Origin: an uncultured Clostridium sp.
GTDB lineage: Bacteria > Bacillota > Clostridia > TANB77 > CAG-508
DNA: 64,000 nucleotides
Reading direction: 5' to 3'
Assembly (NCBI GenBank): GCA_964370905.1
Contig: CAYJKK010000005.1
Location: 666 to 64,665, forward strand
This document shows, in pieces, positions 1 through 9,006 of this stretch. Position 1 is the stretch's first letter. Every line of letters starts with the position of its first letter. The position numbers and the translations under genes are program-made. Under the pieces are notes generated by a model. It ran no database searches, was not told where the DNA came from, and saw only the letters and a list, made by a program, of their open reading frames with translations.

Positions 1-454
1 GTGGTAATTCAAAACTAGTAATACTTAGTTTTCCAATATTAAAACTATATTTTGTAATTTTGATTTCTTTATTCTTTAGTAACTCAAAATGTTTTAAGAA
101 ATTAAGAACATTATCATATGCACTTTTAGGAATCATTACTGTTATGTTAAGCTTTGAGTTACTGATTTTTGTAGCATTCTGTTCTTCACCAAAAAAAGTT
201 TGATATTTCAAATTAAATCTAAGAGGATCGACATTACTTACTCCTAGTATATACATTATATAACAATTAGAGCTATTCCCCATTATATAACTTGGTATAT
301 CGTTTTGCTTTAAAACGTTTATAAGTTCATAAACAGCAATTATTTCTTCTTCAAGATGGTGATACTTTACAAGTTTTACTTCTTCATTTATCCTTTCTAG
401 CAATAATGGGTCTTTTATTTTTAAAATTTTTTCTTCTAATATTTTTTTCATCAT
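1..454 (-). CDS. Partial CDS (5' part; continues beyond window start): degenerate DnaE/PolC PHP-region-like protein
   Basis: Not in the ORF track because there is no stop inside the window. My own translation of the - strand starts at ATG 454 (second ATG at 451), with AGGAG at 464-468: MMKKILEEKILKIKDPLLLERINEEVKLVKYHHLEEEIIAVYELINVLKQNDIPSYIMGNSSNCYIMYILGVSNVDPLRFNLKYQTFFGEE... This parallels the DnaE segment ..NGIPVGPGRGSAAGSLVAYxLxITxxDPLxxxLLFERFLNPER.. However, GRGS is GNSS, the following acidic metal-binding stretch is not conserved, and the N-terminal PHP His motifs are missing. Confidence 0.45.
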   Translation of the reverse strand, partial: MMKKILEEKILKIKDPLLLERINEEVKLVKYHHLEEEIIAVYELINVLKQNDIPSYIMGNSSNCYIMYILGVSNVDPLRFNLKYQTFFGEEQNATKISNSKLNITVMIPKSAYDNVLNFLKHFELLKNKEIKITKYSFNIGKLSITSFELP

Positions 455-650
455 AAAACTAACTCCTACTTATATTTTAAATTTATTGATTTTGAATGTG
501 TAATCAACATCGTCTTAATTTATATTATAACATAAATTATTTTAAAATTTCATCAAAGAATCATTTTATAAGTAATATACTTTTGCATCATTAAATATTA
601 ATACTTTCACTACTCTACATCATATTCCCAAAACTCACCTTTTTTACAAA

Positions 651-1913
651 TTACCATTCAACATATTTAGTTAGATAATCCTCTATTTCTGATGTTTCTG
701 GATTCTTTTTCATTTCTACAAGATATATTTTTAAATCTACTTTTCCCTTTAGTTGTTTTTTATAATAATCTATTGTTTTAGTTTCTTTTGGTAATTTATG
801 AGCTTTTATTAATTGTTCTATTTCTTTTTCATTATTTAAATTTTCTAACATTCTTTTTATTTCTTCTTTTTTTTCAAAGTCATATCCTATTACTATATGA
901 TATTCTAAATTAGTAAAGTCTAAATTAGTAGGTAATTTAGTATTGAATAATTGATTTCTAATTTCAATATTTTGAGTCAAATTTTTCAACACTATTTCTT
1001 TATATTTTTCAGAATTAACAAATTTTATAATATCATCCAAGTGCTTACATATGCCATTAGTCCCCATGATGACTGATTCATTGTATTTTACTTCAACAAA
1101 AATAAATTTATCTTTTTTCAAAAAAACATTATCTACTCTTCCTGTATTAACTTTATTTTCACAATTTGTTGGTGACTTTATTCCTACTTCCATTTCCAAC
1201 TTAAAAGAATCATTATATAGTTTATCTCTCGGATTATTTTCAATCATTAAATACTGCTGAAACATTTTTTCATCTTCTCCACCTACTATTGAACAGTATT
1301 CATTAATAAATATTTCCATCACTTCATTTATATTATTTATATTATCTTTAATATTTCCTCTTGGTTTCATTCTTATGTTTAAATTACTTTTTTTCATTTT
1401 TTGTTCTATTGTAACTTTAGCTAAATCATTTTGAAATTTTATTATTTCATTCCATGAATATTTATCTTTAGATAAATATATTGGATACTCATAGCTATTT
1501 TCATCTTTTTTATTAAACATAAATTCTTCTCTACTTGGAAATTTGTTTTTGTTTATTAGTTTATCCTCTTTTAAAAAATTATATAACTCATCAAGAATAG
1601 TATTTAAATTTTTTTGGTGTTTTAAAATATTATTAGGATTATATTTTAAGATAATTCTTTTTTCTTTTTTAGTACCTATTAAAAAAACAAAATATTTTTC
1701 TATAATGTCTATCCAGTTCTTCATATCACTTTTAAATTTGTCTATATTCTTTCTTTGTTTTTCATTAATTAATAAAACATTAGCATAATATTCTACTTTA
1801 TCACCTTGTATTTTAGCTAGTTTTACTCCATTATAGTAAACATCATCAACTATTTTATTATTTTTATCATATCTATAACGATGTACATATTTTTTATTAT
1901 TGAATTCTTCCAT
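651..1913 (-). CDS. Hypothetical protein with a PD-(D/E)xK (restriction-endonuclease-fold) nuclease-like core in its C-terminal half
   Basis: 420-aa ORF in the track. Its ATG at 1913 lies 5 nt after the stop of the upstream MBL gene, indicating an operon. The motif ...TGRVD261NVFLKKDKFIFVE274VK276YNES... fits the D-x(n)-E-x-K core. The N-terminal ~230 aa are Lys/Asn-rich with no motif I recognise. Confidence 0.6.
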   Translation of the reverse strand: MEEFNNKKYVHRYRYDKNNKIVDDVYYNGVKLAKIQGDKVEYYANVLLINEKQRKNIDKFKSDMKNWIDIIEKYFVFLIGTKKEKRIILKYNPNNILKHQKNLNTILDELYNFLKEDKLINKNKFPSREEFMFNKKDENSYEYPIYLSKDKYSWNEIIKFQNDLAKVTIEQKMKKSNLNIRMKPRGNIKDNINNINEVMEIFINEYCSIVGGEDEKMFQQYLMIENNPRDKLYNDSFKLEMEVGIKSPTNCENKVNTGRVDNVFLKKDKFIFVEVKYNESVIMGTNGICKHLDDIIKFVNSEKYKEIVLKNLTQNIEIRNQLFNTKLPTNLDFTNLEYHIVIGYDFEKKEEIKRMLENLNNEKEIEQLIKAHKLPKETKTIDYYKKQLKGKVDLKIYLVEMKKNPETSEIEDYLTKYVEW

Positions 1914-1918
1914 TACAC

Positions 1919-3163
1919 TTACACTTCCATTTCTTTATTATCATTTATCTCAATATAGTTTTTAAATAACTTTTTAGCCTTTTCTTGTTTGTTTGTATGA
2001 ATAACTATAACTTTAGGATAGTTTAATATCTTATCTAACATCATTAATGTTTCATTATCAGCATGACCTGATGTATGCCTAATTACAAAATCCATAGGTA
2101 ATTTTATTATTTCATTTATAAAATTACTCATAAATTCTTGCCTATCAATGTATCCTGGCCACATAGAATATACAAATAAACATTTCTTATTTTTATCATA
2201 TATTTTCTTTATATCTTCAATCATTGAAGATTTAACTAACATTACAAAATCTCTTTTAGAGTTAAAATTAAATTGCCTATTTGAAAATTTTTCATTAAAG
2301 ATTTCTTCCTTTTCTTTTACATATTTAATTGGTTTATATGAAAACAAATTAGTATATTTTTTTTCGCCAAAACTAGGTATTGTTCCACTAATATTGCTTG
2401 TTATATCACATGTGGCTGCATCCATTATAAATGCTTTATTCCCTTTTGCTTTATAAAAACCAACAATTCTATCAATATTAGTTGATGCTTGCAGAATATA
2501 TATTTGATTATATTTAGTAAATAAACTTTTGACATTAGAACTCAGTTCTTGTTCTGTAACTAATTCCTTTTTTTCTCTACCTAAAGAGGTTCCTTCAGTA
2601 ATTAAATAATCAACTTTCACAATTTTTCTAATAGCATTTAATAAAGAATTTTGTTTTCTACCATGTGTTCTAAAATCTCCCGTATGTAACACTCTTTTAC
2701 CATCACATTCTACTAAAAACATTGCTGAATTATATGACGAATGATCTATTATATATGGTGTTATTTTAATATCTCCAATATTAATAACATCATTAAAATT
2801 AAATTTAAAGTAATTACTACTATCTAGCTTGAAATTTTTTTTAAACGGGTACGTTGTATATTGAATAGTTTTTTCATATATATAAAAACTTTTTTCTTCA
2901 ATATATATAGGAATAGATTTTAACACCTTATTAATTGAAGAAATATGATCTCCATGACTATGTGTTATGAATACTGCATCATATTTTTTTTTGCCTTTTG
3001 TTAATCCATTTAACTCAAATTTAATTTTAGGTTTTTCTTCGTCTGGTAAATCTTCACCAAAATCAATTATAATTTTACTTCCACTCTTAGAGCTTATTTC
3101 AGTAATACATCCTCCTATCTGATTAATACCTTTATGAATTTTAATTTTAATTTTTTTCACCAT
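1919..3163 (-). CDS. MBL-fold beta-CASP (RNase J-like) metallo-nuclease, short and diverged form
   Basis: 414-aa ORF with the full motif set: IIIDFGED (motif 1), ITH68SH70GD72H73 (HxHxDH), IIDHSSY (motif 3), LHTGDFR (motif 4), LITEGTS (beta-CASP motif A) and VIRHTSGHAD (motifs B/C, like the RNase J HxSGHA). It lacks the C-terminal domain of housekeeping RNase J. Confidence 0.8.
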   Translation of the reverse strand: MVKKIKIKIHKGINQIGGCITEISSKSGSKIIIDFGEDLPDEEKPKIKFELNGLTKGKKKYDAVFITHSHGDHISSINKVLKSIPIYIEEKSFYIYEKTIQYTTYPFKKNFKLDSSNYFKFNFNDVINIGDIKITPYIIDHSSYNSAMFLVECDGKRVLHTGDFRTHGRKQNSLLNAIRKIVKVDYLITEGTSLGREKKELVTEQELSSNVKSLFTKYNQIYILQASTNIDRIVGFYKAKGNKAFIMDAATCDITSNISGTIPSFGEKKYTNLFSYKPIKYVKEKEEIFNEKFSNRQFNFNSKRDFVMLVKSSMIEDIKKIYDKNKKCLFVYSMWPGYIDRQEFMSNFINEIIKLPMDFVIRHTSGHADNETLMMLDKILNYPKVIVIHTNKQEKAKKLFKNYIEINDNKEMEV

Positions 3164-3224
3164 CCTATTATTTTATTTTTACTATGCATTTTGGGTTATT
3201 TCTATATTATATCATAATACATTT

Positions 3225-3567
3225 TATAAATAATCTTTATAACAATATAATACCACTTATAAAAATAATTTCAACTATTTTTATAAGATTTTTCATTTAC
3301 AACTCTCTTTTGAAAAATCATTTAAAAATTGCAACCTTTTTTCTCCCATTAATATGTACTTATTTTCCAAAGCCTGTACTTCTAATAGTTTCAGGGCGAC
3401 TACTTTCAAATATTTTTTTAACGGTTAGGGAAGTCGGTGTACAACTTAAAGACGGATATAACGGTGATATATCTGCAAGAGACGCTGGTAAAATAGGTGG
3501 ACAAATGGTTAAAAAAATGATCGAATCTTATGAACAAAACATGAAATAGTTATCATTTAATTTTTAT
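3225..3567. repeat. Direct repeat copy R1 (~343 bp), carrying a decayed SASP gene
   Basis: Aligns by eye with 5645-5987 at an offset of 2420 bp. The first ~130 bp and last ~110 bp are near-identical (e.g. ataaataatctttat...aataatttcaactatttttata...caactctctttt.aaaaatcatttaaaaattgcaacctttttt and aataggtggacaaatggttaaaaaaatga...cttatgaacaaaacatgaaatagttatcatttaatttttat). The middle is more diverged and has indels. Confidence 0.9.
3354..3549 (+). pseudogene. Alpha/beta-type small acid-soluble spore protein (SASP) remnant, frameshifted
   Basis: The C-terminal reading frame REVGVQLKDGYNGDISARDAGKIGGQMVKKMIESYEQNMK* matches clostridial alpha/beta SASP C-termini (cf. ..ELGVPFSDYNGDLSSRQCGSVGGEMVKRMVEAYESQIK, from memory). 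The only plausible ATG (3354, MYLFSKACTSNSFRATTFKYFFNG*) is in another frame and needs a 1-nt change in the T7 run at ~3412-3418 to join. There is no SD upstream, and the conserved N-terminal half is degenerate. Confidence 0.6.
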
Positions 3568-3579
3568 TATGAATACATA

Positions 3580-3614
3580 AAGGCAGGACTTGATTTCCTG
3601 CCTTTTAATTTTTT
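3580..3614 (+). terminator. Rho-independent terminator after the SASP remnant (may also serve the convergent darG-like gene)
   Basis: Perfect 8-bp stem AGGCAGGA (3581-3588) / TCCTGCCT (3596-3603) with a 7-nt loop, followed by tttaatttttt. Confidence 0.7.
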
Positions 3615-3664
3615 ATTTAACTAACTAAGTATTATGCTCATTTTGTTTAGTTAAAACTATTTTC

Positions 3665-4348
3665 TTATATATCAAAAAAAGAAATTTGTTTTAAATTATT
3701 ACTACAATTATAAAAATATTCAAACAATTTTTCATAGGACTTAATTCCTAATCCTTCAATTTCTTGAATTTTATAAAATCTATTCAATGGTCTACTATTT
3801 AAAATACTTTCTTCTTGTTTTGCAGTTACTCTAATAATATTTTTCAAGTTATCTATAGTCATTTCATTAAACAAATCTAACATTTCTTTTTCTTTGCCTT
3901 TTGCAAATGTATATCTATCCATACATATATATATGTCTATTTCTATATTCTGTAAATATTTTTCCATAAGCACTTTAACTTTTGTCCATTCTAATCCACC
4001 ATTTCCACATCCCAATTTAGGGAATGCAACAGATTTAATGTTTTTTCCTTTATATGTTTTCACGAAGTCTTCAAGTCCTTCTTCTATCCATTTAATATTA
4101 GACGGGAACTTAAAACTTTTTTTAGTTGGAAAATTTATTATATTATTACTTCCAATATTATAATACTCAATTTTCCCCACATTTATCTTTTTTTCTATAC
4201 ATCTTTTTTTATAATCTTCATACATACTAGGGTATCTTAACATAAATTCCAATGCAATTCCCTTTCCCATAAAACCATCACAATTGACCGTATTCACATA
4301 GGATTCTGCTGGTGAATTAAATACTGTATCTTCTATATATTTTATCAT
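3665..4348 (-). CDS. darG: DarG-like macrodomain protein (putative DNA ADP-ribosyl glycohydrolase antitoxin) with a short HhH-like C-terminal tail
   Basis: 227 aa. Matching motifs are VNTVNCDGFMGKGIALEF, IINFPTKKSFKFPSNIKWIEEGL and AFPKLGCGNGGLEW. These correspond to DarG macrodomain motifs recalled from memory (VNTVNxxGVMGKGIAL, IINFPTKxHWRxPSxLEWIExGL, IPPLGCGNGGLDW). The C-terminal ~85 aa contain a helix-hairpin-helix-like segment, IQEIEGLGIKSYEKLFEYF, instead of the long canonical DarG C-domain. Confidence 0.8.
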   Translation of the reverse strand: MIKYIEDTVFNSPAESYVNTVNCDGFMGKGIALEFMLRYPSMYEDYKKRCIEKKINVGKIEYYNIGSNNIINFPTKKSFKFPSNIKWIEEGLEDFVKTYKGKNIKSVAFPKLGCGNGGLEWTKVKVLMEKYLQNIEIDIYICMDRYTFAKGKEKEMLDLFNEMTIDNLKNIIRVTAKQEESILNSRPLNRFYKIQEIEGLGIKSYEKLFEYFYNCSNNLKQISFFDI

Positions 4349-4363
4349 TTTATTCTAATAACA

Positions 4364-5629
4364 TTAAACTGTTATATCCTCCATTCCTTTATAATATATA
4401 ATTTTATATCCATTAAAATTATATATTAAATTAAATTTTATACTATATTTTAATTTAAATATCACCTCATAAGTTGTATCTTTAATTTTACTAGGTTCTA
4501 TTATGATTTTTTCAATCTCTCCATTCTCATAACTTATTTCTATCGTATTAGTTATAGTTTTTTCTATCTCTCTTATAAAAAACATTTTCACTTTAATTTC
4601 ACTATCTCGTTGCTCTATTATATAATCTTCTAAGCAATTTATATTAATTAAGTTTTTATAATTAAATTTTGAATTATCTACGAAAAAATTTTCTTTTTTA
4701 CCAAATAAACTAATGGCATTTTTAAAATCAGCACTTGTTCTAAAAATAATTTTATTAGCATATAATATATCTACTTCATTAAAATGTAAATACTCTGCAT
4801 TTCTACATGAGATTATGTGTTTTTTTATTTCATCACAATCTGGAATTGGGTTTCTATCGAAAATAAATTTCCAATCCCACTCTCTTGATTTTAATATATT
4901 TTCAAAGTTATTAAAGACTTGCTTATACTTGCTCCCTGCATTTTTATTTGTAAAATATTTTTTTCCTACTTTAGATATTTTTTTATCAAAGATAAATAAT
5001 ACTGGAGATGGCATATGTGATTCATCTTCTTTTTCATACAACTTTATTCCTTCTGATTTATATAATGTTGGTGTTTTTGAGGAAAAATAAAATCTAACAT
5101 AATTAAGTACATTATTCTCTGTCTTTATTATAACTTCTTTATCTGCCGCATCACACTGTAACTTTCCATTTTCCATAATCTTTTTTCGTGAATATAATTT
5201 CTGCTCTTTCATTATATTTATAAAATTAGTGAAGTCTGTATAATGGTGAAAACCTTCAAATTTAAATTTTTTTTCTAAATATTCAAAAAATTCATTATAA
5301 TAGTATTCTTCTTTTTTCTCTTTCTCCTTCTGCATTTTTGTTATTGAAGTTAGTAATTTAGAAATATTTTCTTTCTTCAAATTTTCTTCTAATTCACATA
5401 TTATTTTTTTTTGATAAATTCTTTTAGCTTCTTCAAAACATTTCTGATTTTCTTCATATATTTTTTTATTTATAACATCTTTTGGCGAAAAAAATAATGT
5501 TTTTCCTAAAAAGTCCTCACTAATTTTTTTCACTCCATTATTATTAAATTCTATAATATAACTTCCTACTTCTTCTCTTATATATTTACCATAACCAAAT
5601 TTAATATGCCACAACATTTGCTCTTTCAT
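4364..5629 (-). CDS. darT: DarT-like (DUF4433) ADP-ribosyltransferase with extra N- and C-terminal regions
   Basis: 421 aa. The central region carries FHHYTDFTNFINIMKEQKLYSR (cf. DarT YHxTHxxNLxSIL), VLNYVRFYFSSKTPTLY (cf. YVPFYFxxRSPMLY), KYFTNKNAG (cf. FTDxHA) and CRNAEYLHFNEV (cf. KQAEFLV with the catalytic Glu). It lies 15 nt upstream of the macrodomain gene, which is the canonical darT-darG order. About 120 aa N-terminal (coiled-coil-like, K/E-rich) and ~110 aa C-terminal (beta-rich) are unassigned. Confidence 0.7.
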   Translation of the reverse strand: MKEQMLWHIKFGYGKYIREEVGSYIIEFNNNGVKKISEDFLGKTLFFSPKDVINKKIYEENQKCFEEAKRIYQKKIICELEENLKKENISKLLTSITKMQKEKEKKEEYYYNEFFEYLEKKFKFEGFHHYTDFTNFINIMKEQKLYSRKKIMENGKLQCDAADKEVIIKTENNVLNYVRFYFSSKTPTLYKSEGIKLYEKEDESHMPSPVLFIFDKKISKVGKKYFTNKNAGSKYKQVFNNFENILKSREWDWKFIFDRNPIPDCDEIKKHIISCRNAEYLHFNEVDILYANKIIFRTSADFKNAISLFGKKENFFVDNSKFNYKNLININCLEDYIIEQRDSEIKVKMFFIREIEKTITNTIEISYENGEIEKIIIEPSKIKDTTYEVIFKLKYSIKFNLIYNFNGYKIIYYKGMEDITV

Positions 5630-5644
5630 AAATACCTCACATCA

Positions 5645-5987
5645 TATAAATAATCTTTATAGTAATATAATATCACTTTTTAAAATAATTTCAACTATTT
5701 TTATAATATTTTTTCATTTACAACTCTCTTTTAAAAAATCATTTAAAAATTGCAACCTTTTTTCTTCCCTTAATATGTACTCATTTTTCAAATCTAGTAA
5801 TACCAATAGTTTCATGGCGATTATTTTCAAATATTTTTTAACAGCTAGTGAAATTTGTGTACAACTTAAATCCAAATATAACGGTGATATATCTCAATGG
5901 CGCTTGGAAAAATAGGTGGACAAATGGTTAAAAAAATGACCCAAATCTTATGAACAAAACATGAAATAGTTATCATTTAATTTTTAT
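5645..5987. repeat. Direct repeat copy R2 (~343 bp), carrying a more decayed SASP remnant
   Basis: See R1 (3225-3567). It starts 16 bp upstream of the darT-like start codon (- strand). Confidence 0.9.
5774..5969 (+). pseudogene. Second alpha/beta-type SASP remnant, with multiple frameshifts
   Basis: Homologous to 3354-3549, but the C-terminal coding part is broken: ..aacggtgatatatctcaatggcgcttggaaaaataggtggacaaatggttaaaaaaatgacccaaatcttatgaacaaaacatgaaatag. Indels relative to R1 destroy the GDISARDAGKIGGQMVKKMIESYEQNMK frame. Confidence 0.55.
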
Positions 5988-6093
5988 CAATTAAATATTT
6001 CATATATTTAATTAAAGTTTGGTAGGAGATTGATTTTTGTTTTTATATTTTTATTATAATTATATTTTATTTTTAAGATATTTTTATATTTAC

Positions 6094-6936
6094 TTAATTC
6101 ATATTATTAATCAATTGTTCTAGTTCTTCTAATACTTCTATGTCCTGACTTGAATAATCTGCATTTTCAAATTTTTCTCGTTCTTCTTTTATTTGAGTTT
6201 CTAAATGTTCTTTACCTGTAATACCTTCTTCATTAACTATATTACTATCTACTCCATTTTCTATAAATAATTTCAATTTATTAACATCAGTATTACTTGG
6301 AATTACTAACCACATTTTATGCAATATCGTTCCTTGTTCATGCTTTAAATCATTTACATTTGCTCCATGTTTTAATAATATTTCTACAGCTTCATATTTT
6401 CCAGTTGTAGTTGCATAGGTTAAAAGTGTACTTTCTTCTAATCCATCTAATGTTGAGTTTTCATCATATCCATATTCAAGTAACAAGTCTAATATTTTTA
6501 ATTTTTCTTCATCTATTCTATTACATTCTTCAACATCATCATAATATGCACTATATTCCCCTACCATCAAATTTTCAATCAATTCATCTTGATTTTCGTC
6601 TATCATCCAGCCATCTTCTAAATATTTTTCTAAAGAATCTATATCACGATACTCAATTGCTGCTATTTCTTTTCCATTAACTATACTAGATAAACCTTGT
6701 CCATAAAAATCTGGATATAGTGCTAAACTCCATAATATAGCTAATATTATTGCTGATATTATAAATAATATACTAACTACTACTTGTGCATTACTTTTTT
6801 TCTTTGTCTTTATTCTTTTAATAAGTAGTACTAATGATATAATACCTATTACAGCAACAAATATATTAAATATGATAAATGCAACAAATATTACTAGTAT
6901 CGTTGGTATTATTGCCATTCCTGCTAATATTCTCAT
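6094..6936 (-). CDS. Membrane protein with C-terminal ankyrin repeats
   Basis: 280 aa with N-terminal hydrophobic helices (ILAGMAIIPTILVIFVAFIIFNIFVAVIGIISLVLLI, VVVSILFIISAIILAILWSLAL). These are followed by ANK-like units: KILDLLLEYGYDEN, STLLTYATTTGKYEAVEILLKHGANVND and KLKLFIENGVDSNIVNEEGITG. Confidence 0.7.
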   Translation of the reverse strand: MRILAGMAIIPTILVIFVAFIIFNIFVAVIGIISLVLLIKRIKTKKKSNAQVVVSILFIISAIILAILWSLALYPDFYGQGLSSIVNGKEIAAIEYRDIDSLEKYLEDGWMIDENQDELIENLMVGEYSAYYDDVEECNRIDEEKLKILDLLLEYGYDENSTLDGLEESTLLTYATTTGKYEAVEILLKHGANVNDLKHEQGTILHKMWLVIPSNTDVNKLKLFIENGVDSNIVNEEGITGKEHLETQIKEEREKFENADYSSQDIEVLEELEQLINNMN

Positions 6937-7004
6937 TTATTATTTTCCTTTCTTATTACTACATTTTTTCTCTTTTAACTATATATATACATTACCTACT
7001 ATTT

Positions 7005-8312
7005 CTATATACAAAAAACTGCATATATTGGAATAGATTTTATATTGTTTTCAAAACCAAAATTTTTCGTTGAAAAGCGAATAGAATATTGTGGTTTCTT
7101 TTCTCTAATATATGTATTTAAGCTTGTAGATTTTACATTTGTCCCTGACTTAACTTCTATTGGTATTATTCCATCATTGTTATATATCAAAAAATCTATT
7201 TCTAAATTTCTTCCTTGTGTCCAATAGTATAGATTATTTGTTTTAGTTACTAATTCCTGTGCTATATAGTTTTCTGTAATAGCTCCTTTAAATTCAAAAT
7301 TTTTATCTAATATTATATCAGTATAATTTATTCCAGAGACTGCAACTAAAATCCCTACATCACTTAAATATAATTTAAAAAATTCTTCTTCAACATATAA
7401 CTTAAGTGGTATTTCTACTTTTTTTACTTTTTTTGATATATATATCATTCCTGCTGAGATTAACCACTCTATTGGATTTTCAAATTTTCTTTTTCTTCCA
7501 TTTTCTTCTATTTCAGCATACATAAACCTTCTTTTATCTTTTGCAAGCTGAATTGGAATGCTGTTATATACTTTTTCTATTTTTACTGTTTCTATATTTC
7601 CTTTAACATACTTTTTCATATCATAATTATACATTTGAACTATATTTAAAATTAAACTTGAATTATATTTCAATATATCTTTACCATTTTCAATAAAATT
7701 TTTAACTGCCTCTGGCATTCCGCCTACACATATATATTCTCTATATAGTTCTATACATCTTTCATGTGCGAAAACTGGCATTGGCTCCATTTTCGTATAG
7801 GATTCACGTATTTTTTCTAATAACATCTCATTTTCTGTCGCCATCATAAATTCTTCGAAATTCATAGGATACATATTTTCAATTATGACTTTTCCAACTG
7901 GAAACGAACTTGTAAATCTATTTACTTTAACGCCTAATAAGCTTCCTGCACAAATGATTTTATATGGTTTTTCAGATTCACAAAAGTATTTGAGTGAAAC
8001 AATAAAATTTTCAGATACTTGTACTTCATCAAAAAACATAATGGTATTTTCTATATCTATCTTTTTTCCTAAATATAGTTCTATTTGTTTAATTATCTCT
8101 TCCTCATTTATTGTTTTTTCAAATATTTCTCTTATACTCTCTTCTTTTTCTAAATTAATATATATATAATCTTTAAAATTTTCTTTAGCATATTTTAATA
8201 TAGTAAATGTCTTACCAATTTGTCTTACACCTATTACCATTAGTGGTTTATTTATATGATTTTCCTTCCAATTTCTTAGTTTTTCTTCAAATAATCTATA
8301 CATTATCATCAA
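7005..8312 (-). CDS. AAA+ ATPase with a C-terminal DUF4143-type (PD-(D/E)xK-like) domain (COG1373 family)
   Basis: 435 aa with Walker A VIGVRQIGKTF, Walker B MFFDEVQ, and a C-terminal ..LEIDFLIYNNDGIIPIEVKSGTN.. nuclease-fold-like motif. The architecture is typical of AAA_14+DUF4143 proteins. Confidence 0.8.
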   Translation of the reverse strand: MMIMYRLFEEKLRNWKENHINKPLMVIGVRQIGKTFTILKYAKENFKDYIYINLEKEESIREIFEKTINEEEIIKQIELYLGKKIDIENTIMFFDEVQVSENFIVSLKYFCESEKPYKIICAGSLLGVKVNRFTSSFPVGKVIIENMYPMNFEEFMMATENEMLLEKIRESYTKMEPMPVFAHERCIELYREYICVGGMPEAVKNFIENGKDILKYNSSLILNIVQMYNYDMKKYVKGNIETVKIEKVYNSIPIQLAKDKRRFMYAEIEENGRKRKFENPIEWLISAGMIYISKKVKKVEIPLKLYVEEEFFKLYLSDVGILVAVSGINYTDIILDKNFEFKGAITENYIAQELVTKTNNLYYWTQGRNLEIDFLIYNNDGIIPIEVKSGTNVKSTSLNTYIREKKPQYSIRFSTKNFGFENNIKSIPIYAVFCI

Positions 8313-8354
8313 CTCCTCAATTACATAGTATCATATTATAAAATATTTTTCAAG

Positions 8355-8450
8355 TTTTTTGCCACTTTTTGCAAGTTTTCTTTTGACGTTTTTACCACTT
8401 TTTGCAGGTTTTTCTTTGGTATTTTTGCCACTTTTTGCATTTTTTCTTTA
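8355..8450. repeat. Three tandem ~33-bp repeats upstream of the DUF4143 ATPase gene
   Basis: TTTTTTGCCACTTTTTGCAAGTTTTCTTTTGACG / TTTTTACCACTTTTTGCAGGTTTTTCTTTGGTA / TTTTTGCCACTTTTTGCATTTTTTCTTTA. On the - strand the core is TGCAAAAAGTGG(C/T)AAAAA. Confidence 0.85.
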
Positions 8451-8480
8451 TTTTCCTCTGTTTATCAGTATTTATTTAAA

Positions 8481-8729
8481 CTAATACAGCTCATTTGCTT
8501 GCTCTTGTGTTAATATATTTTCATTAACTGTATGATCTATAGCTTCTCTTCTTGATTGATCATCTTCAATACTTTTCAAATGGGTAATTAATTCTTGCTC
8601 TGGATTATGAATAGTACCATCACTATTAAATAAATGTGATGTATACACTGTATATACTCCTAAAATAATTGCTATTAAAACTACTATTATGATAATTATT
8701 ATATTTACTACTATTTTTTTATTTTTCAT
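8481..8729 (-). CDS. Small single-pass membrane protein
   Basis: 82 aa with an N-terminal TM segment, IVVNIIIIIIVVLIAIILGVYTVY. It overlaps the upstream ORF by 11 nt, indicating an operon with the LytTR gene. Confidence 0.6.
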   Translation of the reverse strand: MKNKKIVVNIIIIIIVVLIAIILGVYTVYTSHLFNSDGTIHNPEQELITHLKSIEDDQSRREAIDHTVNENILTQEQANELY

Positions 8730-9006
8730 TAAAATCTCCTCCTTTCAAAACTTCATTTAACTTTGTATTTAGTGTTTTTACAATATATCTATTATATAAA
8801 CTATATATCGTAAATATTGCAATATACAATATTAGGTAAAGTAAACTATTATTTTTTAATGCTTCTGCATATGTTTCTATAAAATTAATATTTCCGCCTA
8901 ACATATTTACAAGTATCATTTGTAATATAGTATTAATTAAATTAAATATTACATATATAAATACAAATTGTAATACTATTTTTATATATTTTTTAATATG
9001 CTTCAT
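8719..9006 (-). CDS. Small multi-pass membrane protein (candidate membrane partner of the LytTR regulator)
   Basis: 95 aa with 2-3 hydrophobic helices. Its start is 4 nt after the stop of the LytTR gene. Confidence 0.6.
   Translation of the reverse strand: MKHIKKYIKIVLQFVFIYVIFNLINTILQMILVNMLGGNINFIETYAEALKNNSLLYLILYIAIFTIYSLYNRYIVKTLNTKLNEVLKGGDFNEK

Follow-up and report, generated by a model that had tools for sequence, protein, structure and literature searches.

What are two adjacent nuclease-like genes doing side by side in an uncultured Clostridium sp., next to a cassette that resembles the DarTG system? The genes lie near one end of a 64,000-nucleotide (nt) stretch of contig CAYJKK010000005.1 (positions 666 to 64,665), which is referred to here as the window. 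Both are on the minus strand. The upstream gene (1919..3163) encodes a 414-amino-acid (aa) metallo-β-lactamase (MBL)/β-CASP nuclease, identified from its open reading frame (ORF), Pfam, AlphaFold2 (AF2) and Foldseek as having the catalytic core of an RNase J-like enzyme but not the C-terminal domain of RNase J. The downstream gene (651..1913) encodes a 420-aa partner protein with an N-terminal β-meander (R14, Y26), a variable helical middle and a C-terminal PD-(D/E)xK-like core. The MBL stop codon (1921-1919) and the partner ATG (1913) are separated by the 5-nt spacer gtgta, and a GGAAG Shine-Dalgarno-like element sits within the last MBL codons, ahead of the partner ATG. An initial annotation, made from the letters of the window, had placed the two ORFs 5 nt apart and proposed their co-transcription; the coordinates are exact (junction TAA-gtgta-ATG) and co-transcription is supported. 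The pairing of the two families goes far beyond chance, and the locus represents a conserved, horizontally mobile nuclease pair with intact active sites that act together.

The linkage was counted over 81 loci carrying an MBL homolog (given L numbers below), several of the partnerless loci being truncated contigs. At least 57 of the 81 have a partner, made up of 45 with a member of the partner family, 7 with an alternative protein bearing a D…ELK motif and 5 whose partners were detected only at full search sensitivity. In each of the 45 distinct loci the partner-family gene is on the MBL strand (E<1e-3), and 33 of these 45 partner genes overlap the MBL gene (typically by 4 nt), abut it or are fused to it. 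Translational coupling is the usual arrangement. In six more loci the partner lies 1.8-4.5 kb upstream, in the same operon as the MBL gene. In Bacteroidota and many Clostridia the partner gene comes first, and in relatives of the window locus it follows the MBL gene. Linkage also holds in reverse, as partner relatives found independently adjoin an MBL gene in all five informative cases; the contigs concerned include L093, L097, L098 (4-nt overlap) and L095, in which the next ORF begins MKITVHRGTDQIGGCVTEYE. The two proteins are fused in both orders, partner first in L059 (MBL at residues 325-711) and MBL first in P0122 (MBL 17-430, partner 433-763). Conservation of the two families as neighbours elsewhere, which the initial annotation had proposed as one test of its reading, is thus borne out from both directions and by the fusions.

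On annotated plasmids the partner was found only beside an MBL gene. The pair is spread over Bacillota, Bacteroidota, Ignavibacteria, a lineage of the candidate phyla radiation (CPR) and proteobacterial plasmids. Among 50,697 phage records the partner had no match, and the MBL family had only a distant (~24% identical) relative in three of these genomes. The two nucleases probably act as one complex. An estimate of ~68/81 loci with a partner was rejected, as BLAST cluster 0 had joined Pol-like and partner genes through fusion proteins. The alternative neighbour is a protein of ~300 aa, found in the 7 loci counted above and on Butyrivibrio pCY186. Its members (L078:5081-6004 and relatives; L091:5052-5885, which is WP_013283147 of pCY186) immediately precede the MBL gene in at least 8 loci and have no Pfam match. 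In an hhalign comparison of this alternative “c8” partner with the partner family the probability was 8.6%, which does not establish homology, and the two were treated as analogous; the D…ELK family may be a very remote branch of the partner family or an analogous replacement. A further type of architecture was observed in L043:126-2441, which encodes an MBL protein of 771 aa. Its N-terminal extension of ~340 aa has no match to either partner family and may be a third kind of fused partner.

The MBL protein matches Lactamase_B_2 (3e-10) and Lactamase_B in Pfam, with a sub-threshold match to RMMBL (6e-4). All the motifs that define the superfamily, MBL motifs 1-4 and β-CASP motifs A, B and C, are present. 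In an alignment of 16 homologs, H68xH70xD72H73 (metal-binding motif codons at 2945..2962, minus strand), H160-T-G-D163-F, T189-E-G-T192 and H363-T-S-G-H367-A are all invariant; these include the complete motif set listed in the initial annotation. D34, H141, E190 (β-CASP motif A) and H389 (the motif C His) are likewise invariant. H363-T-S-G-H367, which comprises motif B and the 5′-phosphate pocket, is intact. Against NCBIfam models the protein reaches RNase J1, aCPSF1 and RNase J at 37-44 bits, where cut-offs are 400-820, and it falls far under the trusted cut-offs of the RNase J models TIGR00649 and NF047419. The best sequence match in the PDB is EF2904 (2az4; phmmer 1.8e-20), with RNase J at ~1e-6. 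The AF2 model (predicted local distance difference test, pLDDT, 87.6) also places 2az4 first in Foldseek (1.9e-28, template modelling (TM) score 0.76), followed by RNase J cores (~1e-24 to 1e-21) and then CPSF73/Ysh1 (~1e-20). In these alignments the 414-aa protein covers only the catalytic core of the 540-555-aa RNase J chains (TMt ~0.55). A hit to the ligase-associated exonuclease model TIGR04122 is weak and insignificant (0.019). For the MBL family the protein search gave at least 1,585 relatives, from at least five phyla including gut Bacteroidota and Firmicutes, and its distribution is sporadic across phyla, plasmid-borne and, in the window, within a strain-variable island, not the broad vertical pattern of a stable locus. 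On the basis of motifs, sub-cut-off scores and fold matches, the MBL protein is a genuine β-CASP nuclease that belongs to the RNA-type clade (His in motif C); it groups with neither housekeeping RNase J nor RNase Z and is no RNase J ortholog. It had been described from the start as shorter than and diverged from housekeeping RNase J, a description with which these scores and the nearest structure agree.

The partner sequence has no match in Pfam, PADLOC, PHROGs or the PDB, and its family profile found nothing among PDB sequences. An NCBIfam scan gave one weak match, to YraN (0.036, residues 254-283). Word-seeded searches, whether with the sequence or a profile, recovered essentially only the protein’s own cluster and were swamped by low-complexity candidates. 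An exhaustive phmmer search of 1.84 billion representatives yielded 23 matches at E<=1e-3, namely the own cluster and 22 distant relatives. The family was assembled by combining this search with a local iterative hidden Markov model (HMM) procedure on 80 genome loci anchored on MBL homologs. Profile drift was rejected as the source of the family, given the invariance of the motif columns and an independent test of linkage in reverse. In 34 family members Y26, E215, E242, D261, E274, K276 and H291 are invariant, and R14, Q219, R259 and G287 are nearly so. The D261…E274-x-K276 core predicted in the initial annotation is accordingly invariant, together with E215, E242 and H291.

The AF2 model of the partner (pLDDT 82.3), predicted from a multiple sequence alignment of 25 rows, comprises a β-meander of four strands at the N-terminus, a variable helical region and an αβββαβ core at residues 195-358 (840..1331, minus strand), which holds E215, Q219, E242, R259, D261, E274, K276, G287 and H291. 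The predicted catalytic residues fall in helix 214-221 and strands 237-245, 258-266 and 269-277, the arrangement that characterises the PD-(D/E)xK superfamily (E/D…D…(D/E)xK on a β-hairpin after a helix). Whole-chain Foldseek matches are all weak (E>1e-3, best 5.6e-3; TM <0.2 over the full length), and the top ones are almost all PD-(D/E)xK proteins: Can2, McrC, SduA, Cdn1, Card1, RecB and viral proteins. The predicted assignment of the partner to the PD-(D/E)xK superfamily is well supported by motif and topology. The family itself is new to curated libraries.

A third ORF lies downstream of the partner after a gap of 195 nt; from its start at 454 it continues past the window edge (1..454, minus strand). 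Its 5′ part has a Pfam match to the first third of PF07733, the DNA polymerase III α (Pol IIIα) core, and to no other part of it (1.9e-10, profile positions 11-99), and it is a Pol IIIα/PolC-derived gene for a probable accessory subunit. The complete gene is found in the sister contig L089 (5046-5972; 308 aa), where it is followed, on the opposite strand, by a gene for an α/β-type small acid-soluble spore protein (SASP). Judged by the hallmarks of C-family polymerases (PHP domain, GS motif, PD(I/F)D(I/L/V) aspartates), the window gene does not qualify: a PHP domain is missing and the positions of the GS and catalytic Asp motifs read GNSSNCY…SNSKLNIT. The initial annotation had described a two-gene nuclease module. 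The nuclease pair is genuine, and the Pol IIIα-like gene at the window edge had been missed; the module probably consists of three genes, not two.

Pol-like genes recur well beyond the window. In a Pfam census of 150 flanking genes from ~43 mostly Firmicute loci, DNA_pol3_alpha is the top family (11) and PHP the second (8), and a dedicated HMM finds Pol-like genes in ~24 loci. They take four forms: proteins of 570-900 aa with PHP, palm and fingers that lack the C-terminal clamp-binding and OB domains; proteins of 270-335 aa like the third gene of the window; fragments of ~170 aa whose genes immediately precede that for MBL in Bacteroidota; and N-terminal fusions to the MBL protein (L009, L024). 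Every short form keeps the same ~130-aa palm-N segment. The PolC-type catalytic signatures are intact in L018, L023 and L035 and lost in L012-14, L039, L030 and the window gene. The Pol neighbour in L069, a canonical DnaE, is close to the pair only by chance. On Butyrivibrio pCY186, a third-gene homolog and a dnaX-like gene are found near a WYL-partner-MBL cluster. As an observation in its own right, the mini-PolC proteins of L018 (3783-5975), L023 (3158-5344) and L035 (9127-11235), of 700-730 aa, carry an intact RGSVASS…PDIDLNF signature and are encoded in the same operons as the pair; those of L018 and L023 also have a Zn-finger insertion. Going by these motifs, they could possibly be an active, undescribed small C-family polymerase.

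Among the other recurrent neighbours, WYL-WCX regulators, presumably of the BrxR/CapW type, are encoded upstream in 12 Bacteroidota loci and also on pCY186 and pE2-28. In 16 loci a calcineurin-type phosphoesterase of ~200 aa immediately follows the MBL gene; it corresponds to the PADLOC candidate PDC-S10 (1e-75). The Bacteroidota version of the module consists of WYL, partner, MBL and phosphatase alone. In Bacilli the operons also hold DEDD/RNase_T exonucleases, HTH_11 proteins and KOW proteins, and several loci from uncultured Bacilli (L012, L013, L014/L017, L020, L023, L048) have in common a conserved operon of five to seven genes in the series HTH_11, KOW/NusG-like, mini-PolC-like, (Pol fragment), DEDD exonuclease, MBL and partner. 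In the closest homolog locus (L001:2035-3598; MBL 66% identical), the pair lies directly downstream of a Y-family polymerase gene (IMS) and YolD, on the same strand.

PADLOC matches among the 150 flanking genes comprise PDC-S10 (4), PDC-S05 (2-3), PDC-S23 (2), dGTPase (2) and DEDDh (3). At individual loci, a DUF4143/AAA_14 (PDC-S01-like) ATPase gene follows the MBL gene (L018), two DUF262 genes, a WYL gene and an exonuclease gene accompany it on a Prevotella plasmid, an Eco57I-type methylase and a GIY-YIG nuclease on a Rhizobium plasmid, and a Dcm methylase with a MutH-like gene in L005. This defence company is suggestive. A methyltransferase or specificity subunit is absent from the window cassette, and none is consistently linked in the 81 loci. 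PADLOC 2.0 and NCBIfam (2026) models assign the pair, and its homologs from other phyla, to no named or candidate system, in agreement with the first impression that the gene content matched none; in PADLOC the window MBL protein has only a 60-residue LmuA match and the partner has none. Literature searches returned no description of the pair, of a function for EF2904 or of an association with a dead PolC, and searches on β-CASP defence, 6A-MBL, PDC-S10 and MBL with WYL gave nothing.

Set against known systems, the MBL protein shares with RNase J the MBL and β-CASP fold, the metal motifs, motifs A, B and C with the motif C His, and the H-x-S-G-H pocket (TM ~0.72). It differs in being 14-18% identical and ~140 aa shorter, in having no C-terminal dimerisation domain, and in its sporadic occurrence on islands and plasmids, as an obligate neighbour or fusion partner of a PD-(D/E)xK protein. 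The Enterococcus faecalis protein EF2904 (PDB 2AZ4; 429 aa), which likewise consists of the RNase J-like core only, is the closest relative of solved structure, in sequence as well as in fold, but its identity to the window protein is only ~21-24%. MBL-fold nucleases serve as immune effectors in type VII CRISPR (Cas14), Lamassu (LmuA, MBL type) and 6A-MBL, and weak partial matches to all three were seen (LmuA 1.3e-6 over 60 residues; 6A-MBL 4.7e-4; Cas14 4e-6 with the L059 homolog). These scores amount to 19-25 bits, however, compared with cut-offs of 220-800, and no Cas7/Cas5, SMC-like LmuB or signalling partner is found nearby.

The predicted core of the partner has the E…D…ExK order and αβββαβ topology of McrC, Shedu SduA, Can2/Card1 and Cdn1, its top weak structural matches, but no match to them is significant and it lacks CARF, McrB and DUF4263 signatures. 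Its own features are the N-terminal R/Y β-domain and a G-x-[ST]-G-I-x-x-H segment after the ExK motif. The ligase-associated cluster (Lhr, metallophosphoesterase (MPE), β-CASP exonuclease and ligase) resembles the Bacteroidota versions of the module in combining a β-CASP protein with a small metallophosphoesterase; the module differs in having neither Lhr helicase nor ligase, in its TIGR04122 score of 0.019, and in that its metallophosphatase is PDC-S10. DarTG occupies the same island and strand and has the same duplicated leader/SASP-fragment repeat upstream, but is a separate unit, as L089 keeps the nuclease trio without it. The pair is thus distinct from RNase J, from restriction-modification (R-M) systems and from DarTG, and current defence catalogues do not contain it.

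The DarTG-like cassette that had been noted beside the pair is confirmed by DarG (PADLOC 2.3e-54) and DarT (Pfam 3.8e-17). Both proteins are atypical: DarG (3665-4348) has 227 aa, a macro domain with a short tail, compared with 338 positions in the NCBIfam model, and DarT (4364-5629) has 421 aa, with the DarT domain at 128-312 between a ~125-aa N-terminal and a 110-aa C-terminal extension. DarTG was found in none of the other homolog loci of the pair. The initial annotation had also reported a shared repeat ahead of both the pair and DarTG. The repeat is real (3219-3567 and 5639-5987; segments 84-93% identical, spacing 2420); that it consists of a SASP-gene fragment and a leader had been overlooked. 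Copy A (3219..3641) marks the boundary between the nuclease and DarTG cassettes, and copy B (5639..6098), upstream of DarT, lies outside the module. Each has a ~190-bp shared leader, in which an identical extended -10 promoter-like site faces the respective cassette. Joined to this leader are the last 44 codons of an α/β SASP gene (86% aa identity to the intact copy on the left side of the trio) and the SASP downstream flank, of which copy A keeps the terminator hairpin (3579-3605) and copy B the stretch right after the stop codon. A related SASP-fragment region is present in the sister contig (L089:6040-6460).

The promoter-like site upstream of the MBL gene (TTGAAA-16-TG-TATTAT, 3247..3274, minus strand), repeated identically at 5667-5694 facing DarT, is a consensus match only, and the count of such sites in the region is not above shuffled expectation. 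The GC content of the window is very low (22-30%) and its GC skew strongly negative. An Rfam scan of positions 1-9000 gave no match.

The resulting layout, SASP / trio / SASP fragment / DarTG / SASP fragment / further cargo, suggests that cassettes accreted in tandem by serial integration at the 3′-end of the SASP gene; an integrase is not in view near the SASP-fragment repeats. It follows from this layout that the nuclease trio is a discrete mobile cassette in a position equivalent to that of a validated TA/defence system. The sister contig L089, whose SASP and Flp-pilus genes indicate a Clostridia-type genome, is 99% identical to window positions 1-3553 and has the trio without DarTG, the ankyrin protein or PDC-S01. 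In the window, the insert relative to L089 separates the nuclease cassette from a conserved LytTR operon and comprises DarTG (3665-5629), an ankyrin/transmembrane protein with a weak PADLOC PDC-M72A match (6094-6936) and the PDC-S01 AAA_14/DUF4143 ATPase (7005-8312). A strain-variable defence hotspot therefore lies between the SASP gene and the LytTR operon.

Cleavage by PD-(D/E)xK nucleases leaves 5′-phosphate ends, and RNase J-type exonucleases require a 5′-monophosphate. Since the corresponding pocket is conserved in the MBL protein, a cut-and-chew mechanism can be proposed, in which the PD-(D/E)xK subunit, steered by its conserved N-terminal domain, would cut endonucleolytically and leave a 5′-phosphate end, from which the RNase J-like subunit would degrade the strand in the 5′→3′ direction. 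The motif C His hints at RNA or single-stranded nucleic acid as the substrate. The dead PolC-derived protein would serve as an adaptor or sensor and not as a polymerase, and in other lineages the module would be under transcriptional control by WYL-WCX (BrxR/CapW-type) regulators. Its role would be to restrict nucleic acid that phages or plasmids bring in, or to act by abortive infection. As far as sequence comparison can tell, there is roughly an even chance that the locus is such a mobile two-nuclease module directed against mobile genetic elements. The more specific proposal, that the β-CASP protein and the new PD-(D/E)xK family form a single effector of an unnamed immune system spanning several phyla, with a PolC/Pol IIIα relic exapted as adaptor or sensor, is possible but doubtful; the relic might then be a decoy that signals when a phage interferes with the host replisome, or a tether to foreign DNA as it replicates.

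Several observations weigh against a defensive role. Defence genes make up a modest ~7-12 of the 150 flanking genes, a count without a matched background, and the module contains no NTPase, methyltransferase or obvious discriminator of self and non-self. The top neighbour in Firmicutes is the PolC-like protein, sometimes catalytically intact and accompanied by DEDD exonuclease, HTH and KOW proteins in what resembles a replication/repair operon, and in L001 the pair directly follows the Y-family polymerase/YolD cassette. DNA-damage regulons are also under WYL regulators. Taken together, the recurrent partners (PolC-derived protein, DEDD exonuclease, WYL, Y-family cassette) fit a damage or replication role almost as well. 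By analogy with the Lhr/MPE/β-CASP-exonuclease cluster, the nucleases might trim damaged or stalled ends for a PolC-derived (pseudo-)polymerase and DEDD exonuclease under WYL control (sensing single-stranded DNA or damage), as mobile damage-tolerance cargo that processes DNA damage or handles replication forks. The census rank of the Pol IIIα/PolC-like family (11 of 150 genes, 8 with PHP; ~24 loci), the RGSVASS…PDIDLNF signature kept in some of its members, the RNase_T/DEDD exonucleases within the operon, IMS and YolD directly upstream in L001, the metallophosphoesterase after MBL in 16 loci, the weak TIGR04122 match, and the dnaX-like and Pol-fragment genes on pCY186 all speak for such a role. 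Yet most PolC-like partners, including that of the window, have lost their catalytic residues or are fragments of ~130-300 aa, the distribution is sporadic and plasmid- or island-borne instead of conserved, the motif C His and RMMBL point to the RNA type instead of the DNA type seen in SNM1/Artemis, a linked ligase, helicase or recombinase is lacking, and the TIGR04122 match is insignificant. A damage- or replication-linked role is the leading rival explanation, though rather unlikely.

A function for the mobile element itself, be it replication, recombination or TA-like addiction of an integrative cassette or plasmid instead of host immunity, draws on the SASP 3′-fragment repeats that bracket the cassette, as is typical of integration at gene 3′-ends, on plasmid copies that adjoin replication genes, and on the Bacilli operon with its KOW/NusG-like, HTH and PolC-like polymerase genes. 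It appears quite improbable, given that integrase, relaxase and replication initiator are not consistently linked, that the window cassette has a dead polymerase fragment only, and that the Bacteroidota module is reduced to WYL, partner, MBL and phosphatase. The partner is also unmatched in the 50,697 phage genomes, with a distant MBL relative in three, and two intact active sites under purifying conservation across phyla would be atypical for a TA pair. A reading of the MBL protein as a common RNase J/RNase Z paralog that serves RNA turnover and lies beside the partner by chance could be argued from RNase J cores being its closest characterised structures and from the weak NCBIfam matches to RNase J and aCPSF1. 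The score of 44 bits against cut-offs of 820 and 400, the missing RNase J C-terminal domain, the patchy phyletic spread and the plasmid copies tell otherwise, and the obligate linkage to the partner, including fusions, effectively refutes this explanation, which is left with hardly any probability.

With both enzymes drawn from known superfamilies, and with many nuclease-based candidate systems already on record, the pair opens no new category. It would be, to our knowledge, the first case in which a stand-alone enzyme of the RNase J type is permanently coupled to a restriction-fold nuclease. The partner family merits a Pfam/DUF entry regardless of its function. If the role proposed for the third gene is true, it would be a rare instance in which a replicative polymerase has decayed to an accessory domain without catalytic activity. 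Bidirectional linkage, fusions, breadth, absence from catalogues and the polymerase relic make the module a good experimental target, and the array at the SASP 3′-end offers a tractable natural example of defence-type cassettes piling up at one site. If the module is defensive, it would add a widespread, compact system to the known set, and since it is absent from annotation tools, the defence content of gut metagenome-assembled genomes would then be under-called.

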